A stretch of 64,000 bases of DNA from IMG/VR virus record IMGVR_UViG_3300042397_001782, positions 1-64,000 of that record. One strand, 5' to 3'. The translations under genes and the position numbers were made by a program. Numbering within the stretch: the stretch's first letter is position 1; each line of letters begins with the position of its first letter. Of this stretch, positions 1 through 49,839 are shown in pieces. The notes beneath the pieces are model-generated. The model did not search any database. It saw only the letters and a program-made list of their open reading frames with translations, and had not been told where the DNA came from. The stretch comes from a virus.

Positions 1-2580
1 GGATTATTAAACCATAAAAATCCAAATTTATATGAAGATTTTTTTGCATATTATGCTACTATACCTAAAGAAATAAAATATAAACATTCTATAAAAGAAT
101 TGTATGATAGTTTTAAAAATATACTACTAGGTAATAAATCTACAAAAGCTATAGAGTATTTAAATGGAGGAGAAATAAATCAATATGAAGATGGAGGAAT
201 TATTGATACCATAAAAGAGTTTTTTACAGAAAAAACTAATAAACCAGCACCTAAATCTGCTCCTGCAAAAAGCAGTCCTAAAACATTTAAAATTGAAGAT
301 AAAAGAAAAGTTTTAGCTACAAGTGGGCAGCCAATAAGACCAAATGTTGACATAACGTCTGGAGAATATGATTTAGATGTTTTAAAAGGAATAATAGAGT
401 CTGCTAAAAGAAAAAAATTACCAATAGAAGATGTTAAAAATTTAGCAGCAATAGCTTTTCAAGAAACTAAGTTTGGAAAAACAGATGAAAATCTTGGTCA
501 TGTATCAGAGAACTTTGAATCCAGAAGTGATTTAGAAGCATTAACTAATGCTTATATAACTAAAATGAAGGAAGCAGATAGGTTAGGTATAAAAGATGAA
601 GCAAAGAGATTGCAAGTATACAATGGTCTAAAGCTAATAACTCCAGACACAGAAAAAGATTATCATGGATTTAAAATGAAAAAAATTTATGGGGTTCCTG
701 TACCAAAGGAAGGAATAAATATGAAAAAAAATCCTTTGTATGGAAAACAAATAATGGATTTAAGGGATAATGTATTAAATCAAAATCCAGAGTATGTAAA
801 TTATTTAAATACTATGTATAACTCTAAAGACCCTGTACCTGTTTATAGTGATGTAGAGTTAAAATCTTTGGGACCACCTCCACTTTTGGGAAAATTTGCT
901 TATGGCGGAAAAATAAATAATGATATGAAGAAAAAACTTAAAAAGTATCCTGCTGGAGGCTACCTTGACTATCAAGAAGGGTATAAAGGCTTTGGAGTAG
1001 GTCCTCAACTATATCAAGATAATAGTTATTTTAGATCTATTATGCCTGATACTATTGAAAACATGGAAGAGCAGATTAACCAGCCAAGTGTATTCTCTGG
1101 TATTAACGATATATTAGGCGGTATAGACCAAATAGCTAGTAAAGGTATTGGATTAGCGGGTAATTTTATGAAATCTAAAATGCCTGGAGGAAATAATGTA
1201 ATGCCTGATATAAGTAATTGGCAATCACCTCTTAGTGGGGGAAAAACAGATGAACAATTAAATTTTGAAAATGACCAAGCTTTAAAAAATGCAGGATTAT
1301 TTAATTCTTTCTATCCACAAAAACTTCCTACTATGGGACCGTCAATGGATTCTTCTATGTGGAAAGGAGTTCCTTTTAAGAAAAATGGAGGCTATTTAAG
1401 ACAATACCAAAATGGAGGTAATATGGATATGTTACCTGTAGGGTCTCCTGAATATATTCATAAAAGTAATGTATTTCACGAAAACTATAATCCAGTTCCT
1501 AGAGTACATTTTACTGACGATACTACTCCTTATGATATGGGAGTTAATCTAAATGATTTAGTGAACATGAATGGGGGTAGAATAAATAAATATCAGAATG
1601 GAGGAAGTATGGATTTGCAGGGTTATTTTAATTATTTAACAAACCAAAATCAAAATAGGGTGCCTTCAAGAGCATTTAACGCTAATACTAACAGAGCTTC
1701 TTTAGGTGCATTAGAGGCTGCAAATGCAAATGATTTCTTAAATACAAAGGTAAGAAACGATAGACAAGCTTTTGAAGATGATAAAGTAGATTGGGGTTTT
1801 ATGGATTGGTCTAAAGATATAGTTGCAGGAGGATTAGGTTTATTAAGTTCAGTGCCAGTTTTGGGAGATACTGTAAAAGATGTTGTAGGAGATTCATTCT
1901 TAACTAGAAGAGATGGTTATTCAGTAGGTAAAGGTGTTGGAAATGTAGGAATGGGTGCTGCAAAATTAGTTGCAGGTATACCTAAAGGAGATGTAAGTAT
2001 GATAATGGGAGGAATAGGAGACATAGGAGAAGGAGTTGGTAGTACAGTTGGTAATTTAAATGCTAAATCTGCTATGAGAGATTATAATAAATCAGGATAT
2101 GTTTCTGGGAAAAGATTAGCAAATGCGGCCACAGACTTTAATACAACTATGGGATTATCTAGTAAATTATACGGTATTGGATCATCCGCAGTAGGTTTAG
2201 CAAAAAACCCTAGTAATAAATCCTTAAATACTTTTTTAAGTAATCAAACCCCATTCAACCGTGCAAATAAAGGACAAAATGATTTGAACTTTTTATTGGG
2301 ACAATTTATGCCAGGTTTAAACGGAGGTGGAGGAGATGATGGTGGAGAAATGGCAATGGGAGGGTATTTAAATGATTACCAAGAAGGTGGAATGGTTTCA
2401 ATGCCAGAAGATTTCGAGATACCTAAATTCAAAAAAGGAGGCCTAACTCCAAAAAAAGCTAGAGAAATTTTACATGACAAATCAGTTCATGGAAACCCTT
2501 TAACTGATAAACAAAGAAAATATTTTGGTTACATATCATCACAAAAAAAATCTAGCGGTGGATGGCTAGATGAACTATAA
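1..2580 (+). CDS. Virion cargo-like protein (5' partial) with lysozyme/transglycosylase-like module and repeated xxGG motifs
   Basis: Frame is open from base 1, so the TTG at 100 is probably not the true start. LAAIAFQETKFG...VYNG resembles a lysozyme-fold catalytic Glu and YNG motif. Recurrent YxxGG/MAMGG motifs; Gly-rich hydrophobic segment. Confidence 0.55.
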   Translation, partial: GLLNHKNPNLYEDFFAYYATIPKEIKYKHSIKELYDSFKNILLGNKSTKAIEYLNGGEINQYEDGGIIDTIKEFFTEKTNKPAPKSAPAKSSPKTFKIEDKRKVLATSGQPIRPNVDITSGEYDLDVLKGIIESAKRKKLPIEDVKNLAAIAFQETKFGKTDENLGHVSENFESRSDLEALTNAYITKMKEADRLGIKDEAKRLQVYNGLKLITPDTEKDYHGFKMKKIYGVPVPKEGINMKKNPLYGKQIMDLRDNVLNQNPEYVNYLNTMYNSKDPVPVYSDVELKSLGPPPLLGKFAYGGKINNDMKKKLKKYPAGGYLDYQEGYKGFGVGPQLYQDNSYFRSIMPDTIENMEEQINQPSVFSGINDILGGIDQIASKGIGLAGNFMKSKMPGGNNVMPDISNWQSPLSGGKTDEQLNFENDQALKNAGLFNSFYPQKLPTMGPSMDSSMWKGVPFKKNGGYLRQYQNGGNMDMLPVGSPEYIHKSNVFHENYNPVPRVHFTDDTTPYDMGVNLNDLVNMNGGRINKYQNGGSMDLQGYFNYLTNQNQNRVPSRAFNANTNRASLGALEAANANDFLNTKVRNDRQAFEDDKVDWGFMDWSKDIVAGGLGLLSSVPVLGDTVKDVVGDSFLTRRDGYSVGKGVGNVGMGAAKLVAGIPKGDVSMIMGGIGDIGEGVGSTVGNLNAKSAMRDYNKSGYVSGKRLANAATDFNTTMGLSSKLYGIGSSAVGLAKNPSNKSLNTFLSNQTPFNRANKGQNDLNFLLGQFMPGLNGGGGDDGGEMAMGGYLNDYQEGGMVSMPEDFEIPKFKKGGLTPKKAREILHDKSVHGNPLTDKQRKYFGYISSQKKSSGGWLDEL

Positions 2581-5311
2581 AAAAATTAATATGAAAGAAT
2601 TACTTTTAAAAATAGCAGGAGTTAAAACGGAAGAGGCCTTTTACAAGAAGTTTCCTGACCAAAAAAGCTTTTTCAAGGCTCACCCTGAAGCAAAAGAAAT
2701 TATTGCTCAATACCAACAACAAGAAATGATGGACAATGCTCCAGAAAATTCTCAAGAGCAAATGATGGGTACCGAAGAAGAAATGGTAGAACAAATGGCA
2801 ATGGGAGGAATGATTAAGAGAAAAGATGGCTCTTACTCTAAACCAGGACTTTGGGACAACATCCGTAAGAACAAAGGTTCTGGTAAAAACCCTACAAAAC
2901 AAATGTTAGAGCAAGCTAAAAAAATCCAAGCAGAAGAAATGATGTATGGAGGAATGGTTGACTCCTACTATAATGGAGGAGGAATAAACAACCCAGGATT
3001 TAAAGCTCTTCCTAAATCTGTGCAAAATAACATAATAGCTAATATGGCTATGGGCGGTGAAGTAGAGGAGTATGGAAATGGAGGATACACTGTAAGAAAA
3101 AGTAATGATAGAAAAGGTAAGACACACGTTGTTACTGGTCCTGATGGTACCAAAAAATACTTTGGTGACCCTAAACTTGGAGAAAGAAGCAAATCTAAGT
3201 ACGGTAAAGAAGCCTTTTATGCAAGACATAAGACTAACCTAAAAAACAATCCTTTCTTTAGAGCTTATGCTAGGTCTACTTGGGCTGATGGGGGAATCCT
3301 TCCTGAAGTAGAACAATTAATGTTAGCAGGTCAAAACCCTTATAATATGGGAGGATATGTAGAATATCCAACGTATTATCCTGGGGGAGGTATGGTAGCA
3401 GGACCTATGATGGGTTATGAAGAAGATGATTTTATGTATGCTATGGGAGGTAGAATGTACCAAGAAGGGGGTATGTTAAATAGCATGACACAGGGTATTC
3501 CTGTACAGACAGAAACTTTTGAAGGACAGGCAGAACAAGTCGCTCTTCCTGATGGAACAATTAAGTCAGTAGAAGCTACTACTGCACATGAAAATATGGG
3601 AGATGATACTGTTACAGATTTATTGCCTGGAGGTTCACATATTCAAAGTGCTCGTAATAAACTTACTCCTGACCAGTATGTACAATTGATGCAGATGTTT
3701 AAACCTGAAAGTGCAGAGCAAGATATTAAAAAACTAGCACAAGTATATCAGAGTAAATACGGAAAGAAAAACGGTAAAAAATTATCTCCTGCAGATATTT
3801 CTGAGTATGCTAAAAATAAATATCAAAATAAATCTACTCCTAACTCATTTGATACAGATAAATTAAAAGAAGGAAACAAAAAATCCTACTTAGACTTGAG
3901 TATACAAATGAATGATTTAATTAAATCAGGAAAAGAATTAGCAGAAGGAGCTATTATGGAAGAACAGATGATGGCTTATGGTGGAATGATTCCTAAGTAT
4001 CAGGGTGGTACAGGGTTTACAGGAGTAAATCCGATTGCGGATGAATACAAGGAATTAATAAAAGCAGGGTACTTAAAGTACGACCCTACTATTGGTAAGA
4101 TAAGAGCAAACTTGCCAAAAAATATGCCTTATAAAGAAAAAATTCGTTTAGGCCAGGCTATAGAGCAAATGGGTTTACAAAATATGAGACAAAGCAAAAC
4201 TCCTGGATATGATAATTTTTATGGGGGAAACACTCCTTATGATTATGCACGTTTTTTTGTAGAAAATACGAAAGAAACCCCTTATAATGATAATGTTACT
4301 GAAAAACAGGTAGTAAAAGATTATTTTGAGTTATTGGGAATCACTCCTTCAGAAGAAGATTTAAAAAATCCTGCTTCTTTGTTTAAAATACCAGGATTTG
4401 ACAAAGCTTACCAAGCGTATGTTAATCAAACCCCTGGTATGAGAGAATCTTATGGAGTACCAACTTTAGGGGATACTCCTAGTATATTAGGGATTCAACA
4501 ATGGAAAGCAAGACCGCTAAAAGCACAGGCAACACCTGTAGTTGAAGAAACTCCTGCACAAAAAGCAGAAAAACAGATGTTAAGTGCAAATACTCCAATA
4601 AGCCCTGCGGCAAGAGTTCCTATGCAGAATAGATTTAACTTTGGTTTACTTGAAGGTCAATTGGGCAGAGGACTAAGTGCTAACCAAGCTGCACTTGAAG
4701 CAGGTCTTTCACTAGACCCATTATATATAATGGAAACTCCTGATACTTATATCAGAAGCAGAAAGAATGAAATACCTGTAGGAAATATATTATATAATAT
4801 CGAAAGAGCTCAAAGAAACACTGCAAATGCTTTAGCAGGACAAACAGGAGATTGGAGTACATTAGCTAGTAATATTTCAAATGCAGGGGCTCAAGCTATG
4901 AATCAAGTGGGAGACACTTTGAGTAAGCTAAATCAGACAAATGTAGATCTATATAATGAAACCCAAGGACTTCAACAAGACTTATTAGGTAGTAATATGG
5001 GTGTAAGAAATCAGAATCTAACAAATATGCAAAATATGTTGAACTTTAAAAGGAACTTATTGGGGCAAAAAGCTGTTAAAGATTCAGAGATTTACTCAGA
5101 ATACGCTAAAAGTATGGGTGAAAACGCTCAGAAAGAGCAAAATCAAAAATTGGAAATGTTAAATATTATGGCCTCTAAACCAGATATGTTTAAAGGAGAA
5201 CAAGGACAAATGTTTGTAAATCAAATTTTAGGAAATACAGGAACTTATAATAATCCTCTTGCAGGAACTTTATTAGATAATATTTTATCGTTTAACAGAT
5301 ATAACAGATAA
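2570..5311 (+). CDS. Virion cargo-like protein with xxGG-delimited micro-modules and Q/N-rich helical C-terminus
   Basis: 913 aa ORF; about 12 xxGG motifs in the N-terminal half; no Cys. Confidence 0.55.
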   Translation: MNYKKINMKELLLKIAGVKTEEAFYKKFPDQKSFFKAHPEAKEIIAQYQQQEMMDNAPENSQEQMMGTEEEMVEQMAMGGMIKRKDGSYSKPGLWDNIRKNKGSGKNPTKQMLEQAKKIQAEEMMYGGMVDSYYNGGGINNPGFKALPKSVQNNIIANMAMGGEVEEYGNGGYTVRKSNDRKGKTHVVTGPDGTKKYFGDPKLGERSKSKYGKEAFYARHKTNLKNNPFFRAYARSTWADGGILPEVEQLMLAGQNPYNMGGYVEYPTYYPGGGMVAGPMMGYEEDDFMYAMGGRMYQEGGMLNSMTQGIPVQTETFEGQAEQVALPDGTIKSVEATTAHENMGDDTVTDLLPGGSHIQSARNKLTPDQYVQLMQMFKPESAEQDIKKLAQVYQSKYGKKNGKKLSPADISEYAKNKYQNKSTPNSFDTDKLKEGNKKSYLDLSIQMNDLIKSGKELAEGAIMEEQMMAYGGMIPKYQGGTGFTGVNPIADEYKELIKAGYLKYDPTIGKIRANLPKNMPYKEKIRLGQAIEQMGLQNMRQSKTPGYDNFYGGNTPYDYARFFVENTKETPYNDNVTEKQVVKDYFELLGITPSEEDLKNPASLFKIPGFDKAYQAYVNQTPGMRESYGVPTLGDTPSILGIQQWKARPLKAQATPVVEETPAQKAEKQMLSANTPISPAARVPMQNRFNFGLLEGQLGRGLSANQAALEAGLSLDPLYIMETPDTYIRSRKNEIPVGNILYNIERAQRNTANALAGQTGDWSTLASNISNAGAQAMNQVGDTLSKLNQTNVDLYNETQGLQQDLLGSNMGVRNQNLTNMQNMLNFKRNLLGQKAVKDSEIYSEYAKSMGENAQKEQNQKLEMLNIMASKPDMFKGEQGQMFVNQILGNTGTYNNPLAGTLLDNILSFNRYNR

Positions 5312-42774: not shown

Positions 42775-44805
42775 TTATTTGGCTTCATACCATGATTTTC
42801 CAATATTACTTTCAGCACTCATAAATAGTGTAGGGTTGGTGAGAAATATATTACCCCCCTCTATCATACTCTTTTCCAGTATTCTAGCATATTTTTCTGA
42901 TAGGTGAGTCTCAGTCTCCAAAACTATCTCATCATGGATTACATTAGCTATTCTCGCTTTCCAATAGTCATTGTTTTTTTCAATTTCATTGAATAACAAC
43001 ACTGAAGCCATTTTAGTTTGATGGGCAGCAGTGCCTTGTGTGGGAGCATTTAAGCATAGTCTCATATATTGAGATTTTAAACTGAAATAGTCTTTCATCA
43101 TTAGTTTATTAGCATTAAAGCAATTGTAAGCCCCCATATCTGATATTACATACGAACTCCCTTTATCTTTAGCTTTCTCAAATTTCAGATTTTCTTGCTT
43201 ACCCACTCTATATTTATTCCAAAAATCTCTACCCATATTTGAAATCTTCTCATCAAGGTCTTTGAAAATATCAAACATTGGTAGCTTTAATTTAAATCCC
43301 ATTGCATATTGAATATACCCAAATTCTAAAGCTTCCTTTAGCTTATTTTCCCCATAAGAGTACACTCCATTATGTAATTCTTTGAATAATTTTTCAATAC
43401 GTTCTCCTTCCTCTATAGATAATCCTTCATTCTCTGCTAAAGTAAACCCAGTGCCTCCAAATTGGAAACAAAACCTAGGTGCTTTAGAAGCATTTCGCTT
43501 GGCTTTATGGGTTTTAATAATTTCTTCGTCAGAAAGATCTAATAATTCAGGGTAGAGAACTCTAGCAAAGGCACAGTGTAAGTCCTTTCCTTCCACTATA
43601 GAAGAAATCATGGCTTGGTCTCCAGTAATATCAGCCCCTACAACTGTTTCTTGCCCTGCGTAGTCAGCTACGATAATGTCAAACCCTTCATTTGCCACGA
43701 AACATTCTCTTGTTTCTTTGTTAGAGGGAAAATTTAAAAAGTTTATCTCTCCCTTTCTTGAAGATAGTCTAGCAGTGTCTACTATCGGTTTGAAGTGGGT
43801 GTATATTCTTCCATCCCTTATTTTAGAATAAATACCCTCTCCAAAAGTAGTTACATTATGCTCCACTTCTTTATATTTAAGCCACATTTTTACAAACTCA
43901 TGATTTGACTTAGCTATAACTCCTTTTTCTAAACTTTCTTTTATCTCTCCTTTTTCTTTATAAGTGACATTTATACCTAAATCTTTAAACACTTCTATCA
44001 TTTGTTTAGGAGAACTTAATAGGCAATTTACTTTCCTTTCGTTGCTAAACATATCCATCTGTAAAACTCTATATTTAGGCAGGGTGTCAAAAATATAATC
44101 AATTATTTCTCTCTCACATTTTTTGTATTGGGAATAATCTTTATCCATTTTTGCTTTCCACCTATCCTTTGATATTGGAAGTCCGCATAACTCCATATAT
44201 GTAAGTGCCCTGATATGTCTACAATGCAATTTATAAGAATCTATTGCTTCATAATCTTTTAATTTAATCACTAAATCATTGTGTAACTCTAATAGTCTAT
44301 CAACATCATTAAAGCAATATTGAATTGTGGATGGCTGCGATAACTGAACTCTAGCAATATTAGCTTGTTCTGTTTTGTCGTATATAACCCCAAGCTCTCT
44401 TTGCATACAATTCTTAAAAGAATGTGATACTCCGAATTCTCCATTGTGTAGAATCATAGATGCCAACATCGTATCTCCCACTTTTTTAGGGAAGTAATTC
44501 TTGATAAAGAAGAAACTCAAATCGAAGGCACTATTATGAAATATCATAACCTTATCCAATATAAAAGGCATAACTTCCTCTAAATTAATTATATTCTCTT
44601 TATGTGTCTGCAAATCAATTAGATAATTATTTGTCCCTGTTCCTATTTGAATGGCAAAAATTTCTCCTTCAAAAGCAGAGAGGGAAGTAGTCTCTGTATC
44701 TACCGCTATTATTTCAGGAAGCACCATGTCTTCAAGATTACAGTAACTATACTCCCCTATTTTTTGGAAAAAGGATTTGTTTTTTGTGATTATGTGGTTT
44801 GTCAT
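42775..44805 (-). CDS. polA: Family A DNA polymerase with 3'-5' exonuclease
   Basis: DTET, HNSAFD, YCFND; TARLSS; ADYAGQE; R...K...F motif B; NAPTQG; IHDE. Confidence 0.95.
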   Translation of the reverse strand: MTNHIITKNKSFFQKIGEYSYCNLEDMVLPEIIAVDTETTSLSAFEGEIFAIQIGTGTNNYLIDLQTHKENIINLEEVMPFILDKVMIFHNSAFDLSFFFIKNYFPKKVGDTMLASMILHNGEFGVSHSFKNCMQRELGVIYDKTEQANIARVQLSQPSTIQYCFNDVDRLLELHNDLVIKLKDYEAIDSYKLHCRHIRALTYMELCGLPISKDRWKAKMDKDYSQYKKCEREIIDYIFDTLPKYRVLQMDMFSNERKVNCLLSSPKQMIEVFKDLGINVTYKEKGEIKESLEKGVIAKSNHEFVKMWLKYKEVEHNVTTFGEGIYSKIRDGRIYTHFKPIVDTARLSSRKGEINFLNFPSNKETRECFVANEGFDIIVADYAGQETVVGADITGDQAMISSIVEGKDLHCAFARVLYPELLDLSDEEIIKTHKAKRNASKAPRFCFQFGGTGFTLAENEGLSIEEGERIEKLFKELHNGVYSYGENKLKEALEFGYIQYAMGFKLKLPMFDIFKDLDEKISNMGRDFWNKYRVGKQENLKFEKAKDKGSSYVISDMGAYNCFNANKLMMKDYFSLKSQYMRLCLNAPTQGTAAHQTKMASVLLFNEIEKNNDYWKARIANVIHDEIVLETETHLSEKYARILEKSMIEGGNIFLTNPTLFMSAESNIGKSWYEAK

Positions 44806-45681
44806 TTAGAAAAAAGTTAAGCTATCTTCTTCAGGGATTTCTTGCCAATCATTTTCAATGTACTTGTCAATCTTATCCAAAGTTTCTTCTAAAATACGTT
44901 TACCTTCCATCTCGTCTTTATAAGATAGGGGGTATACCAGCACACTATCTACTTTGGTAGAATTGCATACCACCCAATGAAAAGTTTTTAGCACATAATG
45001 GTTCAAATCATTTTTCTCCATCCAGTCTTCCACCCCTTTTGTATACAAAGCCCCCTGTAAGTGATACAAATATTTTTGCACACTATCAGGAAATTTCGGA
45101 GGGTAGCTGCTGGATTTCAAATCAGTGATAATAATCTCTTGTCTATCATGATCCACTTTTAAATAATCTGTCTTTATAAAAAAGTTATATCCTCTGTATT
45201 GAAAACTCCACTCAAACTGAGCCTTACCATTACTGAATAAATAGGTGGCTTCTCTATCTTTTAGCACATTATTGGCAATAGAGGTTCCTAATTCAAAATT
45301 AGGTTTTAGAAACTTACCTTTTGGATTTTTTGCATATTCAATATATTCAGGAAACTCCAGAACGGATTCTTTTATTTTCTCAAAATTCTTAGATTTCACA
45401 TCTAATATACCACAAACCTTTTCTAAGTTTTCCGCAGAGAGGTCGTAGTTATACTCCTCTGTAAAAATATTTTCAATAATAGCCTTAATTTGAGGCTTTG
45501 GGATAGGAATATCTATAATAGTTTCAGTGATAGGCTCATCAAAAACTATCTTATCTATAATAGACCCTTTCTCTAAAGCATTGTTTCTTTTGTATACAGG
45601 GTTTAAAAATCCTTGTACTCCTTCTTTTATAAGTCTAGTGAGAGAACTATAACTTAATCTGTCTTTTTCTTTATTAAACAT
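44806..45681 (-). CDS. PD-(D/E)XK exonuclease
   Basis: LSYSSL; KTD...ITDLKS...YHLQGALY. Confidence 0.8.
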   Translation of the reverse strand: MFNKEKDRLSYSSLTRLIKEGVQGFLNPVYKRNNALEKGSIIDKIVFDEPITETIIDIPIPKPQIKAIIENIFTEEYNYDLSAENLEKVCGILDVKSKNFEKIKESVLEFPEYIEYAKNPKGKFLKPNFELGTSIANNVLKDREATYLFSNGKAQFEWSFQYRGYNFFIKTDYLKVDHDRQEIIITDLKSSSYPPKFPDSVQKYLYHLQGALYTKGVEDWMEKNDLNHYVLKTFHWVVCNSTKVDSVLVYPLSYKDEMEGKRILEETLDKIDKYIENDWQEIPEEDSLTFF

Positions 45682-45701
45682 AATTATTATTTTTTTAGGT
45701 G

Positions 45702-45709
45702 CAAATGTA
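45702..45709 (-). promoter_or_regulatory. Bacteroidota -7 promoter element
   Basis: TACATTTG(CA). Confidence 0.6.
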
Positions 45710-45720
45710 TTATTTTTTTT

Positions 45721-45903
45721 TCAAAATGGGCAATATTCTTTTTTGCTTTTTTCTTTAAGGTCATCATAATCACGCTCTATTTTTTCTTTGATTGCATTCC
45801 TAACAAACTGCGAAACATTTACGTTATATCCTTTTAATTTATCTAAGGTTTGCTTTTGCTCTTTTGATATTCTTATGTTTAATATTTCGGTATTTATTGG
45901 CAT
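45721..45903 (-). CDS. Ribbon-helix-helix DNA-binding protein
   Basis: LNIRISKEQKQTL...NVSQFVRNAIKEKI. Confidence 0.7.
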   Translation of the reverse strand: MPINTEILNIRISKEQKQTLDKLKGYNVNVSQFVRNAIKEKIERDYDDLKEKSKKEYCPF

Positions 45904-45945
45904 TTAAGTTTAATTTGTGTTACAAAAATTTCGTAAAGCATCGAG

Positions 45946-46179
45946 TTAGTGATAATATTTCTTTAAGTAGTCAAAAAGTTGTTGTCCTTCTTCAATGTAT
46001 ATCGTATTGAAAGTTCCATTACTTTTTGTTGTTTTTATACTTATATTAGTTTCACCAACTTTTACCCTAACTTTTTCGTAATCCTTCGTTTCAAAAGAAA
46101 TACTATCACTAACATCAGATATATGTAATTTTTCATTACTCTTATCTAAGTTTTGTTCTAAATTTTTACTTTCTCCCAT
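45946..46179 (-). CDS. Cassette 1 hypothetical protein
   Basis: 77 aa; stop is the TTA of the core site; LHISDVSDS is the translated hairpin arm. Confidence 0.65.
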   Translation of the reverse strand: MGESKNLEQNLDKSNEKLHISDVSDSISFETKDYEKVRVKVGETNISIKTTKSNGTFNTIYIEEGQQLFDYLKKYYH

Positions 46180-46226
46180 TTTATTAAATTTTGTGTTAAA
46201 ACTACATATATCTGTGACCGTTAGCG
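46107..46226 (+). repeat. attC-like site A (120 bp)
   Basis: cactaac..cagatatatgta / tacatatatctg..gttagcg. Confidence 0.8.
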
Positions 46227-46922
46227 GTTATTCTGAAAGAACGCCTCTGCAAATCCTGCAGAACACATTGAACGAATATCCGCATCACATTTTATTTTAT
46301 CTTTTGCCCATTGCATTTCGGGAATCAAATCCACCGCTGACTTATGTAAAAATGCAAGTGCAGGTTTTGGTCTTCCTGGTCTTATATAAAGTTTATCGTT
46401 TTTAGGCACTTTATTCCAATCAGTATATTTCTTTTCAGGTATATTAAATTCTCCCCATAAAGCCGTTTTTTTAGTCCAAGGGCTTCCGTATTCCCAAGGT
46501 TGATAAACAAGTTTAGGTTTACCTAAAAACTCTTTTAATCTACCATTTGCTGGATTTTCAATTACCCACCATTTAGGTTTTGCTTCTTTAATAATTCGTA
46601 AACAATGATTTACTAAAAACATTCCTTTTTCTAAATCGTTTTGTTTATGAAATCCATTTGCGGTTGAAAATTCAGTACACACAGGATTTGCAATTATACC
46701 ATAAACATTTGGCGGTGGGTTATAATTTTCTACACCTATTTCTTCGCCTATCATTATAACTTCGTATTCATCAGATAATTGGTAAAATAAACTATCACTA
46801 CCTAAATCAGCACATAAGTGAAGTATAATTTTAGGAGAAGAACAACCGCTAACACTGCATATACGCAATGTGGGGTTTAGTGCTTCAACAACGTTTTCGT
46901 TTTCAAATAAACTTTTCTGCAT
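46221..46922 (-). CDS. Cassette 2: divergent DNA cytosine-5 methyltransferase-like protein
   Basis: ILHLCADLGS (motif I variant), ANPVCTEFS (motif IV variant), IENP, KKT.LWG. Confidence 0.7.
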   Translation of the reverse strand: MQKSLFENENVVEALNPTLRICSVSGCSSPKIILHLCADLGSDSLFYQLSDEYEVIMIGEEIGVENYNPPPNVYGIIANPVCTEFSTANGFHKQNDLEKGMFLVNHCLRIIKEAKPKWWVIENPANGRLKEFLGKPKLVYQPWEYGSPWTKKTALWGEFNIPEKKYTDWNKVPKNDKLYIRPGRPKPALAFLHKSAVDLIPEMQWAKDKIKCDADIRSMCSAGFAEAFFQNNR

Positions 46923-46977
46923 AATTTAAAATTTAGTTTTCATAATCCCACACTGCGTATATGCTTTTACGTTATAG
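46847..46977 (+). repeat. attC-like site B (131 bp)
   Basis: cgctaac..gcatatacgca-a-tgtggg / cccaca-c-tgcgtatatgc..gttatag. Confidence 0.85.
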
Positions 46978-47010
46978 GTAAGTGCTACAACCATTCTTCG
47001 ATTAAACATT

Positions 47011-48120
47011 TTAGTTAGAAAAATCATTAAAAATTTCCCCTCCTTTTAAAAAAGAAAAAATATGAGCAATCACATCTACTGTCCAGCCATCACCCAAAAG
47101 ACAAGCTGCATCGTTTCTTTTTAAAATTCTTGTATATCCTTCGGGAACGGTTTGTAATCTTTCTAATTCTGTTTGTGTAAAGTATCTCAAATCACCATCT
47201 TGAAAAACAAAGTATTGGTTATTTCTTAAAAGGCAATTTGATTTATCTTTCATTGATCTACCTCTTCTTGTTTCGCTTGTTGGATAACTCAAATCAACTG
47301 CTTCATTATTTCCAATATCTACAAATCCAATTTTAGTAGCTTCTTTTACTCTTAAAAATGTTTCTTTGTCTTTTGCCACAAGCGTAATAAATCCTTTTTC
47401 TAAAAATCTATGAGCCATTTTGTGTTGGCTTTTTAATGGTCTGCTTTCACTTTCTAAAATGCAAACACTTTTTTTCCTATCTGTATATCCACTTTCAAGT
47501 ATATCCTGCAATTTTATTTTTTTGTCTTTTGGCTGTGGTATTTTGCAATATCTAAATCCAAATAAATCAAAATCTTCCGGACCTATATTTGTCCAATAAA
47601 ATCTATTCCTCATTTGTGCTGAAACTAATTCGCTGTTTATGTTTACAGGATATGTTCCTAAATATTGGCTTATTAATTCCATATCCTTATCAGTCATTGA
47701 TACATTTTCAAGTAAAAAATATTTTGGTTTGCATTCTTTTAGCAATCTCAAGTATTCAAAAAATAAACCGCTTTTTGCACCTTCAAGTCCTTTACGTTCT
47801 TTATTTGCAAGACTAAAATCTTGACAAGGACTTCCACCTATCAATAAATCAATTTGTGGTAAATCACTTGCTTTTACATCTAATACGCTACCTAATTGTA
47901 TTGTATTTGGAAAATTGTGTTGAGTTACTTTTATTGCGTGTGGTTTTATTTCACTTGCAAAGTATTGATTAACTTTTATTCCTGCCTTTTGTAAAGCTAA
48001 TTGACCACAAGACATACCATCGAAAAGAGATAGTACATTTAAACCCGTACTGCCTGTAACAGGTGTTTGGCAAAAGCTGGGCTTCTGTGCTAAATCAAAG
48101 TTTGTACTTTCTATAATCAT
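47011..48120 (-). CDS. Cassette 3: DNA cytosine-5 methyltransferase
   Basis: LSLFDGMSCG, GGSPCQD, LLENV, Q.R.R.YW, ERLQT, LGDGW. Confidence 0.92.
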   Translation of the reverse strand: MIIESTNFDLAQKPSFCQTPVTGSTGLNVLSLFDGMSCGQLALQKAGIKVNQYFASEIKPHAIKVTQHNFPNTIQLGSVLDVKASDLPQIDLLIGGSPCQDFSLANKERKGLEGAKSGLFFEYLRLLKECKPKYFLLENVSMTDKDMELISQYLGTYPVNINSELVSAQMRNRFYWTNIGPEDFDLFGFRYCKIPQPKDKKIKLQDILESGYTDRKKSVCILESESRPLKSQHKMAHRFLEKGFITLVAKDKETFLRVKEATKIGFVDIGNNEAVDLSYPTSETRRGRSMKDKSNCLLRNNQYFVFQDGDLRYFTQTELERLQTVPEGYTRILKRNDAACLLGDGWTVDVIAHIFSFLKGGEIFNDFSN

Positions 48121-48199
48121 TTGTTTTAAATTTAAAGTTTAGTTCTTTGGTTAAGCATTTGTAGTAGCCACGCCTTCGCCAAGCCCGAAACCGTTATGC
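48054..48199 (+). repeat. attC-like site C (146 bp)
   Basis: ctgtaac..ttggcaaaagc..ggct / agcc..gccttcgccaa..gttatgc (imperfect arms). Confidence 0.7.
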
Positions 48200-48460
48200 A
48201 CTAGCTTTATTCAATGACTTTAAATTGTACTGCTCTGGCATTTTTTTTGCCTTTACTAACTTATAATACCATATCGCAACGCCATCTTTGTACCCCTCTA
48301 AAATAGTGTCTATTTTCCATTCAAATGAACGTCTTAGTGCCATTACCCTCGCTCCTACGTTGTTTGCTTTACATTTTTTTTTCATGTCATGAATGTAGCT
48401 TTTTTTGTTTTCCTTTAGATACGCTGCTACTAAGTAAGTAGAATTTAATTGCTTTTTCAT
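48194..48460 (-). CDS. Small wHTH-like protein
   Basis: NVGARVMALRR...I.T...Y.L; stop coincides with the last GTTA core. Confidence 0.55.
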   Translation of the reverse strand: MKKQLNSTYLVAAYLKENKKSYIHDMKKKCKANNVGARVMALRRSFEWKIDTILEGYKDGVAIWYYKLVKAKKMPEQYNLKSLNKASA

Positions 48461-48494
48461 TCTTTTAGTTTTTAGTTGGTTAATTTATTGGAAA

Positions 48495-48776
48495 TTAATT
48501 TTTAAATAATTCATTTATATTTTTTGCAGATTCAAAATCATTCATTGAATTAGCAAATTCCTCAAGAACTCCTTTTGGTGTGAAACATATAGTTACATCG
48601 TATACTTTATTATTGCACCCTACTTCTGCTAAATATGCAGTTAATCCATTTTCAGGAAGTTCAGTTTCTTTTGCAATATCCATAAAAACATTCATTGTTT
48701 TTATTGTCAATACTTTACTCATGTCTTCTTGACTATTTATTTTTTTATTACCTGTGAATTTTTCCATTTTACTCAT
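48495..48776 (-). CDS. Hypothetical protein
   Basis: 93 aa ORF. Confidence 0.55.
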   Translation of the reverse strand: MSKMEKFTGNKKINSQEDMSKVLTIKTMNVFMDIAKETELPENGLTAYLAEVGCNNKVYDVTICFTPKGVLEEFANSMNDFESAKNINELFKN

Positions 48777-48777
48777 A

Positions 48778-49839
48778 TTAATTTTTATTTTTACTAAGGT
48801 TAACTACTGCTATCTTATCTTTAAATTTATCCATACCATTCAACACCCACTTTTCTTCTAAAGTTCCCTCAGCTACTAAGAAATATATAAAACTTTTCTC
48901 ATGTACTGCTATCCTGCAAAATCTTCCGATAAGTTGTTCTTTTGATGAAGGAGAACTATCTATTCCTAGCACAAATCCATACTTTAAATTTGGTATACTA
49001 ACGGATTCTTTTAGGATTCCTACATTTACTAGTCTACCTGATTCAGAGTGATAGAACTCATCATAGTTTTTCTTCTTAGTTTTATTATCCATAGAAGAAT
49101 TAAATTGAGAAAACCCAAAACTAGCACCTTGCTCAATACTTCCTGCATATATTAATAACTTTTTATCCGAAAATTTCTCATTAATTAGTCTATTAGCTAG
49201 AGCCACTTTGCTAGGCAATGTATTTAAGAACTGCTTCAGTTTGCCTAATTCAGGAGGGTAGGATTCATTATATGGAGATGTTAAATAATTTTTGTGATGA
49301 TAATCATAAACACTTTTTTCTTCAGGAGTCATCTTATACTTAACCACAACCATTTGAAAATTATTCAATAAATTATTATCAATAGCATTATTGATAAGGT
49401 AGGAATAACAAATAGGAAAGTATTTGTGAATTTCATGAGTATTGCTTGGAGTACCTGTAAGTCCTAGAATAGATACCGCAGGGTTTATTCTCATAAGTCT
49501 CAAACAATTTTCCAATATAAGATCTTTTTCCTTGTGCATTTCATCTATAATAATCAAATCGTACTTTTCGTTGTAATTTTTCAAAGATTTATTGCATATA
49601 AAGGTAATGTTAGTTTCCAAACAACCCCATTTAGTTAATTCATCTTTAAAGTTTTTAATATAAATTTGTCTTGCACCACTAAATAAAATTTTACAATAAG
49701 GGTTAGTACTTCTATAGTGTTTAATAATATCAATAGCACACTTTGTCTTTCCCATTCCTACCGCTAGAGCAATAGTGGATCTTCTATCTTTAGAGGATAG
49801 GAAAGCGTTTACTGCTTTTTCCTGGACTTCTGCTTTCAT
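48778..49839 (-). CDS. Superfamily 2 helicase
   Basis: AVGMGKT, IIDEMH, GLTGTP, QLIGRFCR. Confidence 0.9.
   Translation of the reverse strand: MKAEVQEKAVNAFLSSKDRRSTIALAVGMGKTKCAIDIIKHYRSTNPYCKILFSGARQIYIKNFKDELTKWGCLETNITFICNKSLKNYNEKYDLIIIDEMHKEKDLILENCLRLMRINPAVSILGLTGTPSNTHEIHKYFPICYSYLINNAIDNNLLNNFQMVVVKYKMTPEEKSVYDYHHKNYLTSPYNESYPPELGKLKQFLNTLPSKVALANRLINEKFSDKKLLIYAGSIEQGASFGFSQFNSSMDNKTKKKNYDEFYHSESGRLVNVGILKESVSIPNLKYGFVLGIDSSPSSKEQLIGRFCRIAVHEKSFIYFLVAEGTLEEKWVLNGMDKFKDKIAVVNLSKNKN

Follow-up and report, generated by a model that had tools for sequence, protein, structure and literature searches.

A probable orphan array of integron-like gene cassettes among the replication genes of a lake phage

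The 64,000 nucleotides analyzed here (the window; positions 1 to 64,000 of IMG/VR virus record IMGVR_UViG_3300042397_001782) belong to a lake phage with a genome of 119,980 bp (CheckV completeness 100%), and they raise the question of how three minus-strand genes, each bounded by the tetranucleotide GTTA and each beginning inside a hairpin, came to lie between genes for DNA replication. A reading of the window made from its letters alone (the sequence-only reading) had proposed that these are integron cassettes inserted from circles by crossover at G|TT. We consider it probable that 45946-48193 holds three integron-like gene cassettes in an orphan array. The proposed integron signature is borne out by the complementarity of each cassette's two ends and by exchange exactly at the cores, but the array is not a classical one: its genes are antisense and start inside the site. 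Its third cassette is degenerate.

The region 45945-48196 consists of three units arranged head-to-tail (cassette 1, 45946-46220; cassette 2, 46221-46971; and the degenerate cassette 3, 46972-48193), each made up of a minus-strand gene with its start codon within a site formed by TAAC, a hairpin and GTTA. The GTTA cores at 45945, 46220, 46971 and 48193 and the inverse TAAC cores ending at 46113, 46853 and 48060 are all found where the sequence-only reading had placed them. In each unit an inner arm of 12-20 nt beside TAAC pairs with the far end of the unit's own gene. The outer arm of cassette 1 (B', 45945-45964, + strand), which marks the left edge of the strain-variable array, comprises the GTTA core and 16 nt, holds the stop codon of open reading frame (ORF) 77 (45946-48) and is a 19/20 complement to the inner arm (B, 46094-46113, +), which ends in the TAAC core and carries a conserved mismatch at position 11. 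In cassette 2, the outer arm (B', 46220-46234, +), with the stop codon of ORF233, is a 14/15 complement to the inner arm (B, 46839-46853, +), which likewise ends in its TAAC core. Both pairings are longer than had been claimed, while that of cassette 3 stays weak at 8/10 (46971-80 against 48051-60). The outer arm of this cassette (B', 46971-46982, +; GTTATAGGTAAG) is followed by 28 non-coding nt up to the stop codon of ORF369, and its 12-mer type also starts cassettes in the hemulen and snork phages. The inner arm (B, 48049-48060, +; ACTGCCTGTAAC), ending in the third TAAC core, keeps the C at position 11 and matches its own cassette end at 4/8 variable positions, compared with 1/8 for the core that it faces. 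Counted from the G of GTTA, the mismatch at position 11 (A.C on the + strand, G.T on the other) is constant between loci, and all three window cassettes have it.

Sites were defined by a structural scan (TAAC, an adjacent stem and GTTA) and not by IntegronFinder or HattCI models. Hairpin site 1 (46110-46223, +) has a stem pairing at 16/17 positions (46116-32/46198-214) and a 65-nt loop that contains the ORF77 start, and hairpin site 2 (46850-46974, +) has a stem pairing at 19/21 positions (46857-77/46944-64) and a 66-nt loop with the ORF233 start. Hairpin site 3 (48057-48196, +) is degenerate and folds weakly; its loop contains the ORF369 start, and its GTTA is both the right edge of the variable array and part of the stop codon of ORF88. 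Fold z values are about -2.6 to -3.1 for sites 1 and 2, and -1.3 and -0.7 for site 3. The start codon and the first ~22 codons of every gene are thus inside its own hairpin. An imperfect hairpin between an inverse core AAC and a core GTT, as in the attC sites of integrons, is present at all three sites, although it is weak at the third. Further copies of the three sites were not found in the phage's own genome by BLAST. In Rfam, site 2 (46841-46982, - strand) gave only a sub-threshold match, end-to-end, to the Wolbachia small RNA 46 family WsnRNA46 (26.3 bits against a gathering threshold of 65.3, E-value: 0.026); this match may reflect merely a long AT-rich hairpin. A scan for sigma-70 promoters and terminators returned matches fewer than, or no more than, those in shuffled sequence, with Bacteroidota promoters lying outside the models of the scan.

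Close relatives show that units are exchanged exactly at these cores. The phage's own lineage is represented by eight contigs (L090-L097) whose polymerase protein is 99-100% identical to that of the window. In sister strains whose flanks are 97-99% identical to the window (L091/L093/L097, L094 and L095), the interior of the array has been replaced: L091, L093 and L097 match up to 45948 and again from 48192, with ~720 bp of other content between; L095 matches up to 45948 and again from 48188 (~545 bp); and L094 matches up to 45949 and again from 48133, within the loop of site 3 (~1200 bp). In each case the replaced content holds hairpin sites of its own. In all, four contents other than that of the window were counted between the two outermost GTTA cores. 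L096 stops before the island and L092 soon after 45948, and neither shows the content between both cores; L090 is missing 45716-48193. Because sister-strain homology breaks at these points, the start and end that the sequence-only reading gave to the array are the edges of a strain-variable cassette island. The same behavior is seen in cultured phages of Flavobacterium. Where they can be aligned, hemulen6-1, sniff9-2, snork6-1 and snork6-2 are 99.7-100% identical; they differ by insertions of 343 bp and 470 bp and by two replacements, and 8/8 breakpoints of these differences lie at CGTTA. Indel boundaries unrelated to GTTA had been named as the finding that would speak against cassettes; in both the sister strains and the Flavobacterium phages, the boundaries are at cores. 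Contigs from lake water (low-depth assemblies) have loose ends at 45946, 45949, 46093, 48057 and 48188-90, all of which are cores or arm ends, and one metagenome contig diverges exactly at 48057.

The hairpins themselves recur in other phages. Site 1 has counterparts of 92-96% identity in four large uncultured phages, one of them in the array that adjoins a recombinase gene in phage G001, while site 2 is 98.4% identical in L006/L008/L013 and ~80% identical in 13 further loci, among them the hemulen-group Flavobacterium phages. Aligned hairpin modules are conserved from about the TAAC core to CGTTA and then diverge abruptly, and their stems covary: the site-2 stem of L014 is fully compensated, and 13 aligned site-2 sequences have eight different continuations after CGTTA. 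Across loci, the inner arm is the reverse complement of sequence at, or just past, the stop codon of its own gene, such that arms vary between loci yet stay complementary. An own-cassette complement was found in 15/16 complete loci of the two hairpin families, the exception being L002; this set left out five ORFs that run off their locus and L019, which has half a module. When 46 non-redundant cassettes from 10 loci were scored, the own end matched at 7/8 variable positions in 20, 6/8 in 8, 5/8 in 6 and fewer in 12. The claim that an inverse core fits the start of its own cassette better than the core it faces therefore holds widely (at least 5/8 in 34/46, compared with 5/46 for the facing core), and the 19/20, 14/15 and 8/10 matches in the window are what G|TT crossover would be expected to leave.

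Arrays of this kind can be considerably longer than the one described here. LR756500 has ~8 sites in 3 kb, several IMG/VR phages have 6-9, and the 39-kb Flavobacterium phage hemulen6-1 has nine contiguous sites, five methyltransferases and no annotated integrase. The strict TAAC/GTTA scan finds nothing in Polaribacter phage P12002L, and relaxing the core adds a few weak sites; P12002L cassettes found via inverted repeats and by eye have the same arm-and-core layout. Since the scan misses compact or GTTG-core sites, all site counts given here are lower bounds.

Could the pattern be a product of chance, made of TAA stop codons followed by C and of AT-rich inverted repeats? Three of the four GTTA cores are indeed the reverse complement of a TAA stop and C, and GTTA/TAAC 14-mer pairs taken alone are not significant (2, compared with a mean of 1.12 in 50 shuffles). 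Hairpin sites, however, number four in 120 kb, of which two are strong, compared with 0-2 detections per shuffle (20 shuffles), and outside the island there are only two weak sites in the 120-kb genome. Hairpin sites combined with an own-end complement occur as 2 distinct cassettes (3 detections) in 120 kb, compared with 1 detection in 100 shuffles. One arm pair matches at 19/20 positions, the hairpins are kept at 80-98% identity in other phages and the strain breakpoints sit on cores. A chance origin was rejected on the strength of the hairpin conservation, the breakpoints and the joint-pattern shuffle test, and we give it next to no probability.

What enzyme might move these units? The statement that the window encodes no tyrosine recombinase holds and can be extended to the whole 119,980-bp genome, in which a serine recombinase, a Y1 transposase and a homolog of the 267-aa enzyme described below were likewise searched for and not found. 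As the phage encodes no recombinase, the array is an orphan. Its three sites, two strong and one weak, lie within 2.1 kb of each other, which is the composition of a CALIN (cluster of attC sites lacking an integron integrase). Phage G001 (266 kb, with 97-bp terminal repeats) carries an array of hairpin family 1 that runs on across the terminal repeat, and it encodes a 267-aa tyrosine recombinase with the first site 1.4 kb from its start. Homologs of this protein (62-100% identity) are present in 41 IMG/VR loci. In the 33 full-length loci (512 kb), the 10 kb upstream of the recombinase start contain 137/144 sites, with 39 in the first kb alone, compared with 0 within 5 kb downstream and 7 further downstream; these counts include near-identical loci and a few sites counted twice. 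The largest recombinase-linked array has 18 sites. In 25/29 loci an attI-like motif, TATATA..ATAGTTA (the TATATATAATAGTTA junction motif), is found 45-54 nt from the recombinase start codon, and L033 has a GTTG variant of it. The outer arm of a cassette directly follows the motif, and in 14/25 an inner arm matching this outer arm at 7/8 positions is found within 3.5 kb. An attI site with an integrase, as seen in these related phages, was found neither in the window nor in the genome, and the sequence to the left of 45945 is unlike the motif.

The recombinase is Xer-like, and its best solved relative is the XerC-like/XerA protein 4a8e. Its alignment with VchIntIA consists of two blocks; the stretch between them counts 37 residues, compared with 85 in IntI4, which means that the enzyme lacks the IntI-specific insertion. 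It falls below both NCBIfam cut-offs (XerA and integron integrase), with a TIGR02249 score of 157.6 bits against 265. No true IntI was found in the genome of the lake phage either. The suggestion that the phage uses a host or unlinked integrase remains plausible in that other phages carry the same site families beside a recombinase, but that recombinase is Xer-like and not IntI. Close bacterial relatives of the recombinase had 0 sites in 11 loci. In a wider Bacteroidota sample, a homolog (E-value ≤ 1e-45) was found in 119/401 genomes; of 30 loci examined, four had a strong site and one a weak site, and five extended regions had 1-2 sites each and no large array. Four Bacteroidota genomes have these strong sites, singly or paired, at a distance of 0.5-1.9 kb from genes for Xer-like recombinases (L161 8109-8232 and 9420-9502; L160 12938-13061; L162 95-219; and L163 10033-10158), and the two L161 sites have a 7/8 own-end match. 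A host-chromosome counterpart of the system is possible.

A fixed tetranucleotide beside a hairpin and insertion without target duplication, both seen here, would also suit single-strand transposons of the IS200/IS605 or palindrome-associated type, in which a Y1 HUH transposase cuts next to such a tetranucleotide. The genome contains no Y1 transposase, however, the arrays are polar and adjoin a tyrosine recombinase rather than a Y1 enzyme, and each unit has one long hairpin instead of distinct left-end and right-end hairpins. We therefore regard this explanation as highly improbable, only slightly less so than chance.

Read on the + strand, each cassette runs from an outer arm (G|TTA N6 AT) through an antisense gene to an inner arm (AC N6' TAAC) and a stem-loop-stem ending in CG. 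If the units are integron-like cassettes, a mechanism can be proposed for their movement. In a closed circle, the outer and inner arms would lengthen the stem into one long imperfect hairpin of attC-like topology with the crossover at G|TT, and a tyrosine recombinase that recognizes the folded strand would cut units out, and insert them, at the GTTA core. In this phage, that task would likely fall to the 267-aa Xer-like recombinase of other large phages, whose gene is found beside the attI-like motif and beside arrays from these families of sites. A ribosome-binding region, the start codon and ~22 initial codons are all in the loop, so that every cassette comes with signals for its own expression. 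When circle junctions were assembled in silico for 65 cassettes, the strand complementary to TAAC..GTTA folded better in 64 (mean -24.3 compared with -19.2 kcal/mol), a difference to which the position-11 rule used to set the orientation contributes in part. In attC sites, the counterpart of the better-folding strand is the recombinogenic bottom strand.

The strand that folds better has, in addition, the sense of the mRNA, such that a role in RNA fits the strand asymmetry equally well. The hairpins might be expression elements that act in the transcript (in mRNA stability, processing or translational control), with the start in the loop and the ends of the cistron paired, and the units might be shuffled only by homologous recombination between intergenic modules that are conserved, as has been proposed for the promoter-early stem-loop (PeSL) cassettes of T4-type phages. 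The position of the start codon and conserved leader in the loop, the G.U-type wobble that the conserved mismatch would form in mRNA, the occurrence of identical hairpins on unrelated gene bodies and the lack of a recombinase in this phage all suit this explanation. In contrast, the breakpoints fall on a 4-nt core and not across the ~120 nt of homology, the arms vary in sequence while remaining complementary, as for a structural DNA site, and the polar arrays border on a tyrosine recombinase and a conserved junction motif. In addition, the consulted part of Qi et al. (2023, PMC9892861) reports a site of a related phage as a substrate of IntI1. We judge an RNA-only role to be improbable, though it is the strongest of the alternatives; RNA and DNA roles could coexist.

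Several observations weigh against the cassette interpretation. First, as stated above, the strand that folds better is equally the transcript strand. Second, cassette 3 is weak, with 8/10 arms and a poor fold. Third, no recombinase of the tested families is encoded in the genome, which leaves any activity of this array hypothetical. Fourth, the link between recombinase and sites is one of position only, and the recombinases of the cultured Polaribacter phage Freya_10 and Cellulophaga phage Ingeline_1 are 36-38% identical to the 267-aa enzyme, yet the scan found no TAAC/GTTA sites in the 7 and 12.8 kb covered. Fifth, the left end of the L090 deletion is at no core. Sixth, circles, excision junctions and go-back junctions were not seen in assembled contigs of four of the 24 runs (X10, X12, X13 and X14), none of which spans the array. 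Finally, identical hairpins are joined to unrelated gene bodies with a break at the left (TAAC) core, a pattern left unexplained by one crossover at the right core. On this last point, the core GTT reads as an in-frame codon across the joint at 60/87 unique sites with a gene start in the loop (the other frames account for 18 and 9, and kinship inflates the counts), and all three window cassettes read Val-Ser or Val-Thr at the core GTT. Together, the frame bias and the breaks at the left core are hints that exchange at both cores is used.

Two other observations were made on these phages and runs. A motif, TTGTTGCTAACACCC, is common to Freya_10 (L128 4037-4146) and Ingeline_1 (L129 5891-6000), ~50-60 nt upstream of the integrase start; from Freya_1 to Freya_10 the integrase is found at positions from 50 to 4147, which may reflect just different record starts. 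Two contigs of X13 skip the 64-nt loop of hairpin 1 (46133>46198, between the arms), through either an assembly effect or a real loop-less variant.

How, then, does the array relate to known systems? Integrons count as bacterial devices, and the IntI integrase as their defining enzyme. The phage array resembles them, especially the sedentary chromosomal integrons with their homogeneous ~120-nt attC sites, in its polar succession of one-gene units, its imperfect hairpins and its CTAAC/GTTAG cores, in that the outer core has its far side in the following unit and in precise gain and loss at G|TT(A). Related phages moreover have their recombinase beside a conserved junction site, on the proximal side of the array, which reproduces the intI-attI-cassette polarity. 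Unlike integrons, the phage system has a linked recombinase that is Xer-like and 267 aa in length, without the IntI-specific insertion; its genes are antisense to the classical direction, with the start and ~22 codons in the hairpin loop; its paired core arms are 12-20 bp in length with a fixed mismatch at position 11; its hairpins and gene bodies assort independently; and it resides in phages. In place of the classical layout of mostly promoterless genes co-oriented with the array, each followed by an attC site, all three window genes are antisense to TAAC>GTTA and begin inside the site. The system is integron-like, and on integrase and gene layout it falls outside the classical integrons.

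A more conservative explanation is that the array is the remnant of a classical integron (a CALIN) from the bacterial host, served by the host's true IntI. CTAAC/GTTAG are the commonest attC cores and the topology is identical. Against this, the only recombinase found beside the arrays is the short enzyme below both family cut-offs, the genes run the opposite way and have their starts within the site, the arms extend over 12-20 bp and the arrays are found in phages, with 0-2 sites in each of the bacterial loci sampled. We consider a classical remnant very unlikely, more so than a role in RNA alone. Part of the evidence in its favor comes from Qi et al. (2023, Front Microbiol 14:1091391, PMC9892861). 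According to the consulted text of that article, 10,705 phage genomes contained 17 CALINs of at least two sites each, orphan attC clusters occur with DNA methyltransferases in virulent phages, and the CALIN of P12002L has two methyltransferases and one attC-like site that was recombined by IntI1. These CALINs resemble the present array as orphan attC-like clusters with methyltransferases, and P12002L, which has a flavobacterial host, shares its arm-and-core layout. They were treated as parts of classical integrons and assayed with IntI1, and the consulted text describes no Xer-like platform, in-site gene start, long complementary arms or large Flavobacterium phage arrays, although the supplementary tables may list more. 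As far as their consulted portions go, PMC10013915 and PMC11054128 merely mention IntegronFinder runs. Our literature search returned no description of a phage platform linked to an Xer-like recombinase, of gene starts within sites or of long self-complementary arms.

Two further systems of mobile modules may be compared with the phage cassettes. The pdif (Xer) modules of Acinetobacter plasmids consist of genes flanked by target sites of Xer-type tyrosine recombinases and are found in many contexts. They resemble the cassettes as discrete gene modules, but pdif sites are 28-bp double-stranded sequences with conserved arms in alternating orientation, whereas the phage sites are ~80-130-nt hairpins with variable arms and one orientation throughout. 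In T4-type phages, PeSL cassettes consist of small accessory genes behind a stem-loop with expression signals and are shuffled between phages, with exchange ascribed to homologous recombination. Unlike the cassettes described here, they are not known to have a 4-nt core, complementarity between the two ends of a cassette or a site-specific recombinase linked to them.

Taken together, the evidence points to a phage system parallel to integrons that swaps accessory genes, many of them DNA methyltransferases, at folded hairpin sites. With somewhat less than even confidence, we propose that phages of Bacteroidota type own an integron analogue with a compact Xer-like recombinase that lacks the domain taken to define integron integrases; that expression heads (hairpin, ribosome site, start codon and leader) and gene bodies with their own arms are swapped separately at two inverted GTTA cores; and that orphan arrays are served in trans by recombinase-bearing phages during co-infection. 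If this chemistry is correct, recognition of hairpins by a tyrosine recombinase would not need the IntI-specific domain, the hypervariable accessory islands that many aquatic phages carry would have a mechanism, and TAAC-hairpin-GTTA with self-complementary ends would be a rule for finding mobile counter-defence genes of phages. The cultured hemulen, sniff and snork phages of Flavobacterium already show cassette gain and loss.

The cargo was said to include two C5-methyltransferase-like genes among three. ORF369 (cassette 3; 47011-48120, -) is clearly a DNA cytosine-5 methyltransferase (PF00145, E-value: 5.4e-38, 131.7 bits with a cut-off of 22, profile positions 2-320 of 324; phrog_116, E-value: 5e-58). 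ORF233 (cassette 2; 46221-46922, -), whose first ~26 codons come from hairpin 2, is a divergent DNA methyltransferase by its PHROG match only (phrog_757 'DNA methyltransferase', E-value: 3e-28) and is below the PF00145 cut-off (18.4 bits against 22). It shares only its first ~26-30 residues, the hairpin-encoded stretch, with a 234-aa ORF of L006 (26/30 identical) and is otherwise unrelated to it. ORF77 (cassette 1; 45946-46179, -), the first ~23 codons of which come from hairpin 1, has no match in Pfam or PHROG, and its leader also heads another ORF, in LR756500. In 1.19 Mb of loci, no credible DNA match to the three gene bodies was found; the single hit, which covers 52 nt of the body of ORF369 and comes from a bacterial locus, seems spurious. 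The methyltransferase cargo would probably protect phage DNA from host restriction, judging from what is generally known of orphan phage methyltransferases.

Every gene between 42.7 and 50.1 kb is on the minus strand. To the left of the array are genes for a family-A DNA polymerase (42775-44805, -) and a PD-(D/E)XK nuclease (44806-45681, -), and to the right, beyond ORF88 and ORF93 (48194-48776, -), is a helicase gene (48778-49839, -). ORF88 and ORF93 are accessory genes without hairpin sites and are missing in L099-L103 and L106. In these six relatives (polymerase protein 83-88% identical), all of 45695-48774, comprising ORF60, the three cassettes, ORF88 and ORF93, is absent and the nuclease gene directly adjoins the helicase gene; the gap between the two replication genes is therefore an insertion hotspot. 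ORF60 (45721-45903, -), also part of the accessory island, encodes a 60-aa ribbon-helix-helix/CcdA-like protein, has no core to its left, and is missing from L090 as well as from the 83-88% relatives. Upstream of it, 45901-45944 resembles the right half of hairpin 1 (76% over 25 nt), ends at the first GTTA and has no left arm. Half-modules of the hairpin-1 family are also seen in L019, which has the right half only, and in L020, which has the left half only.

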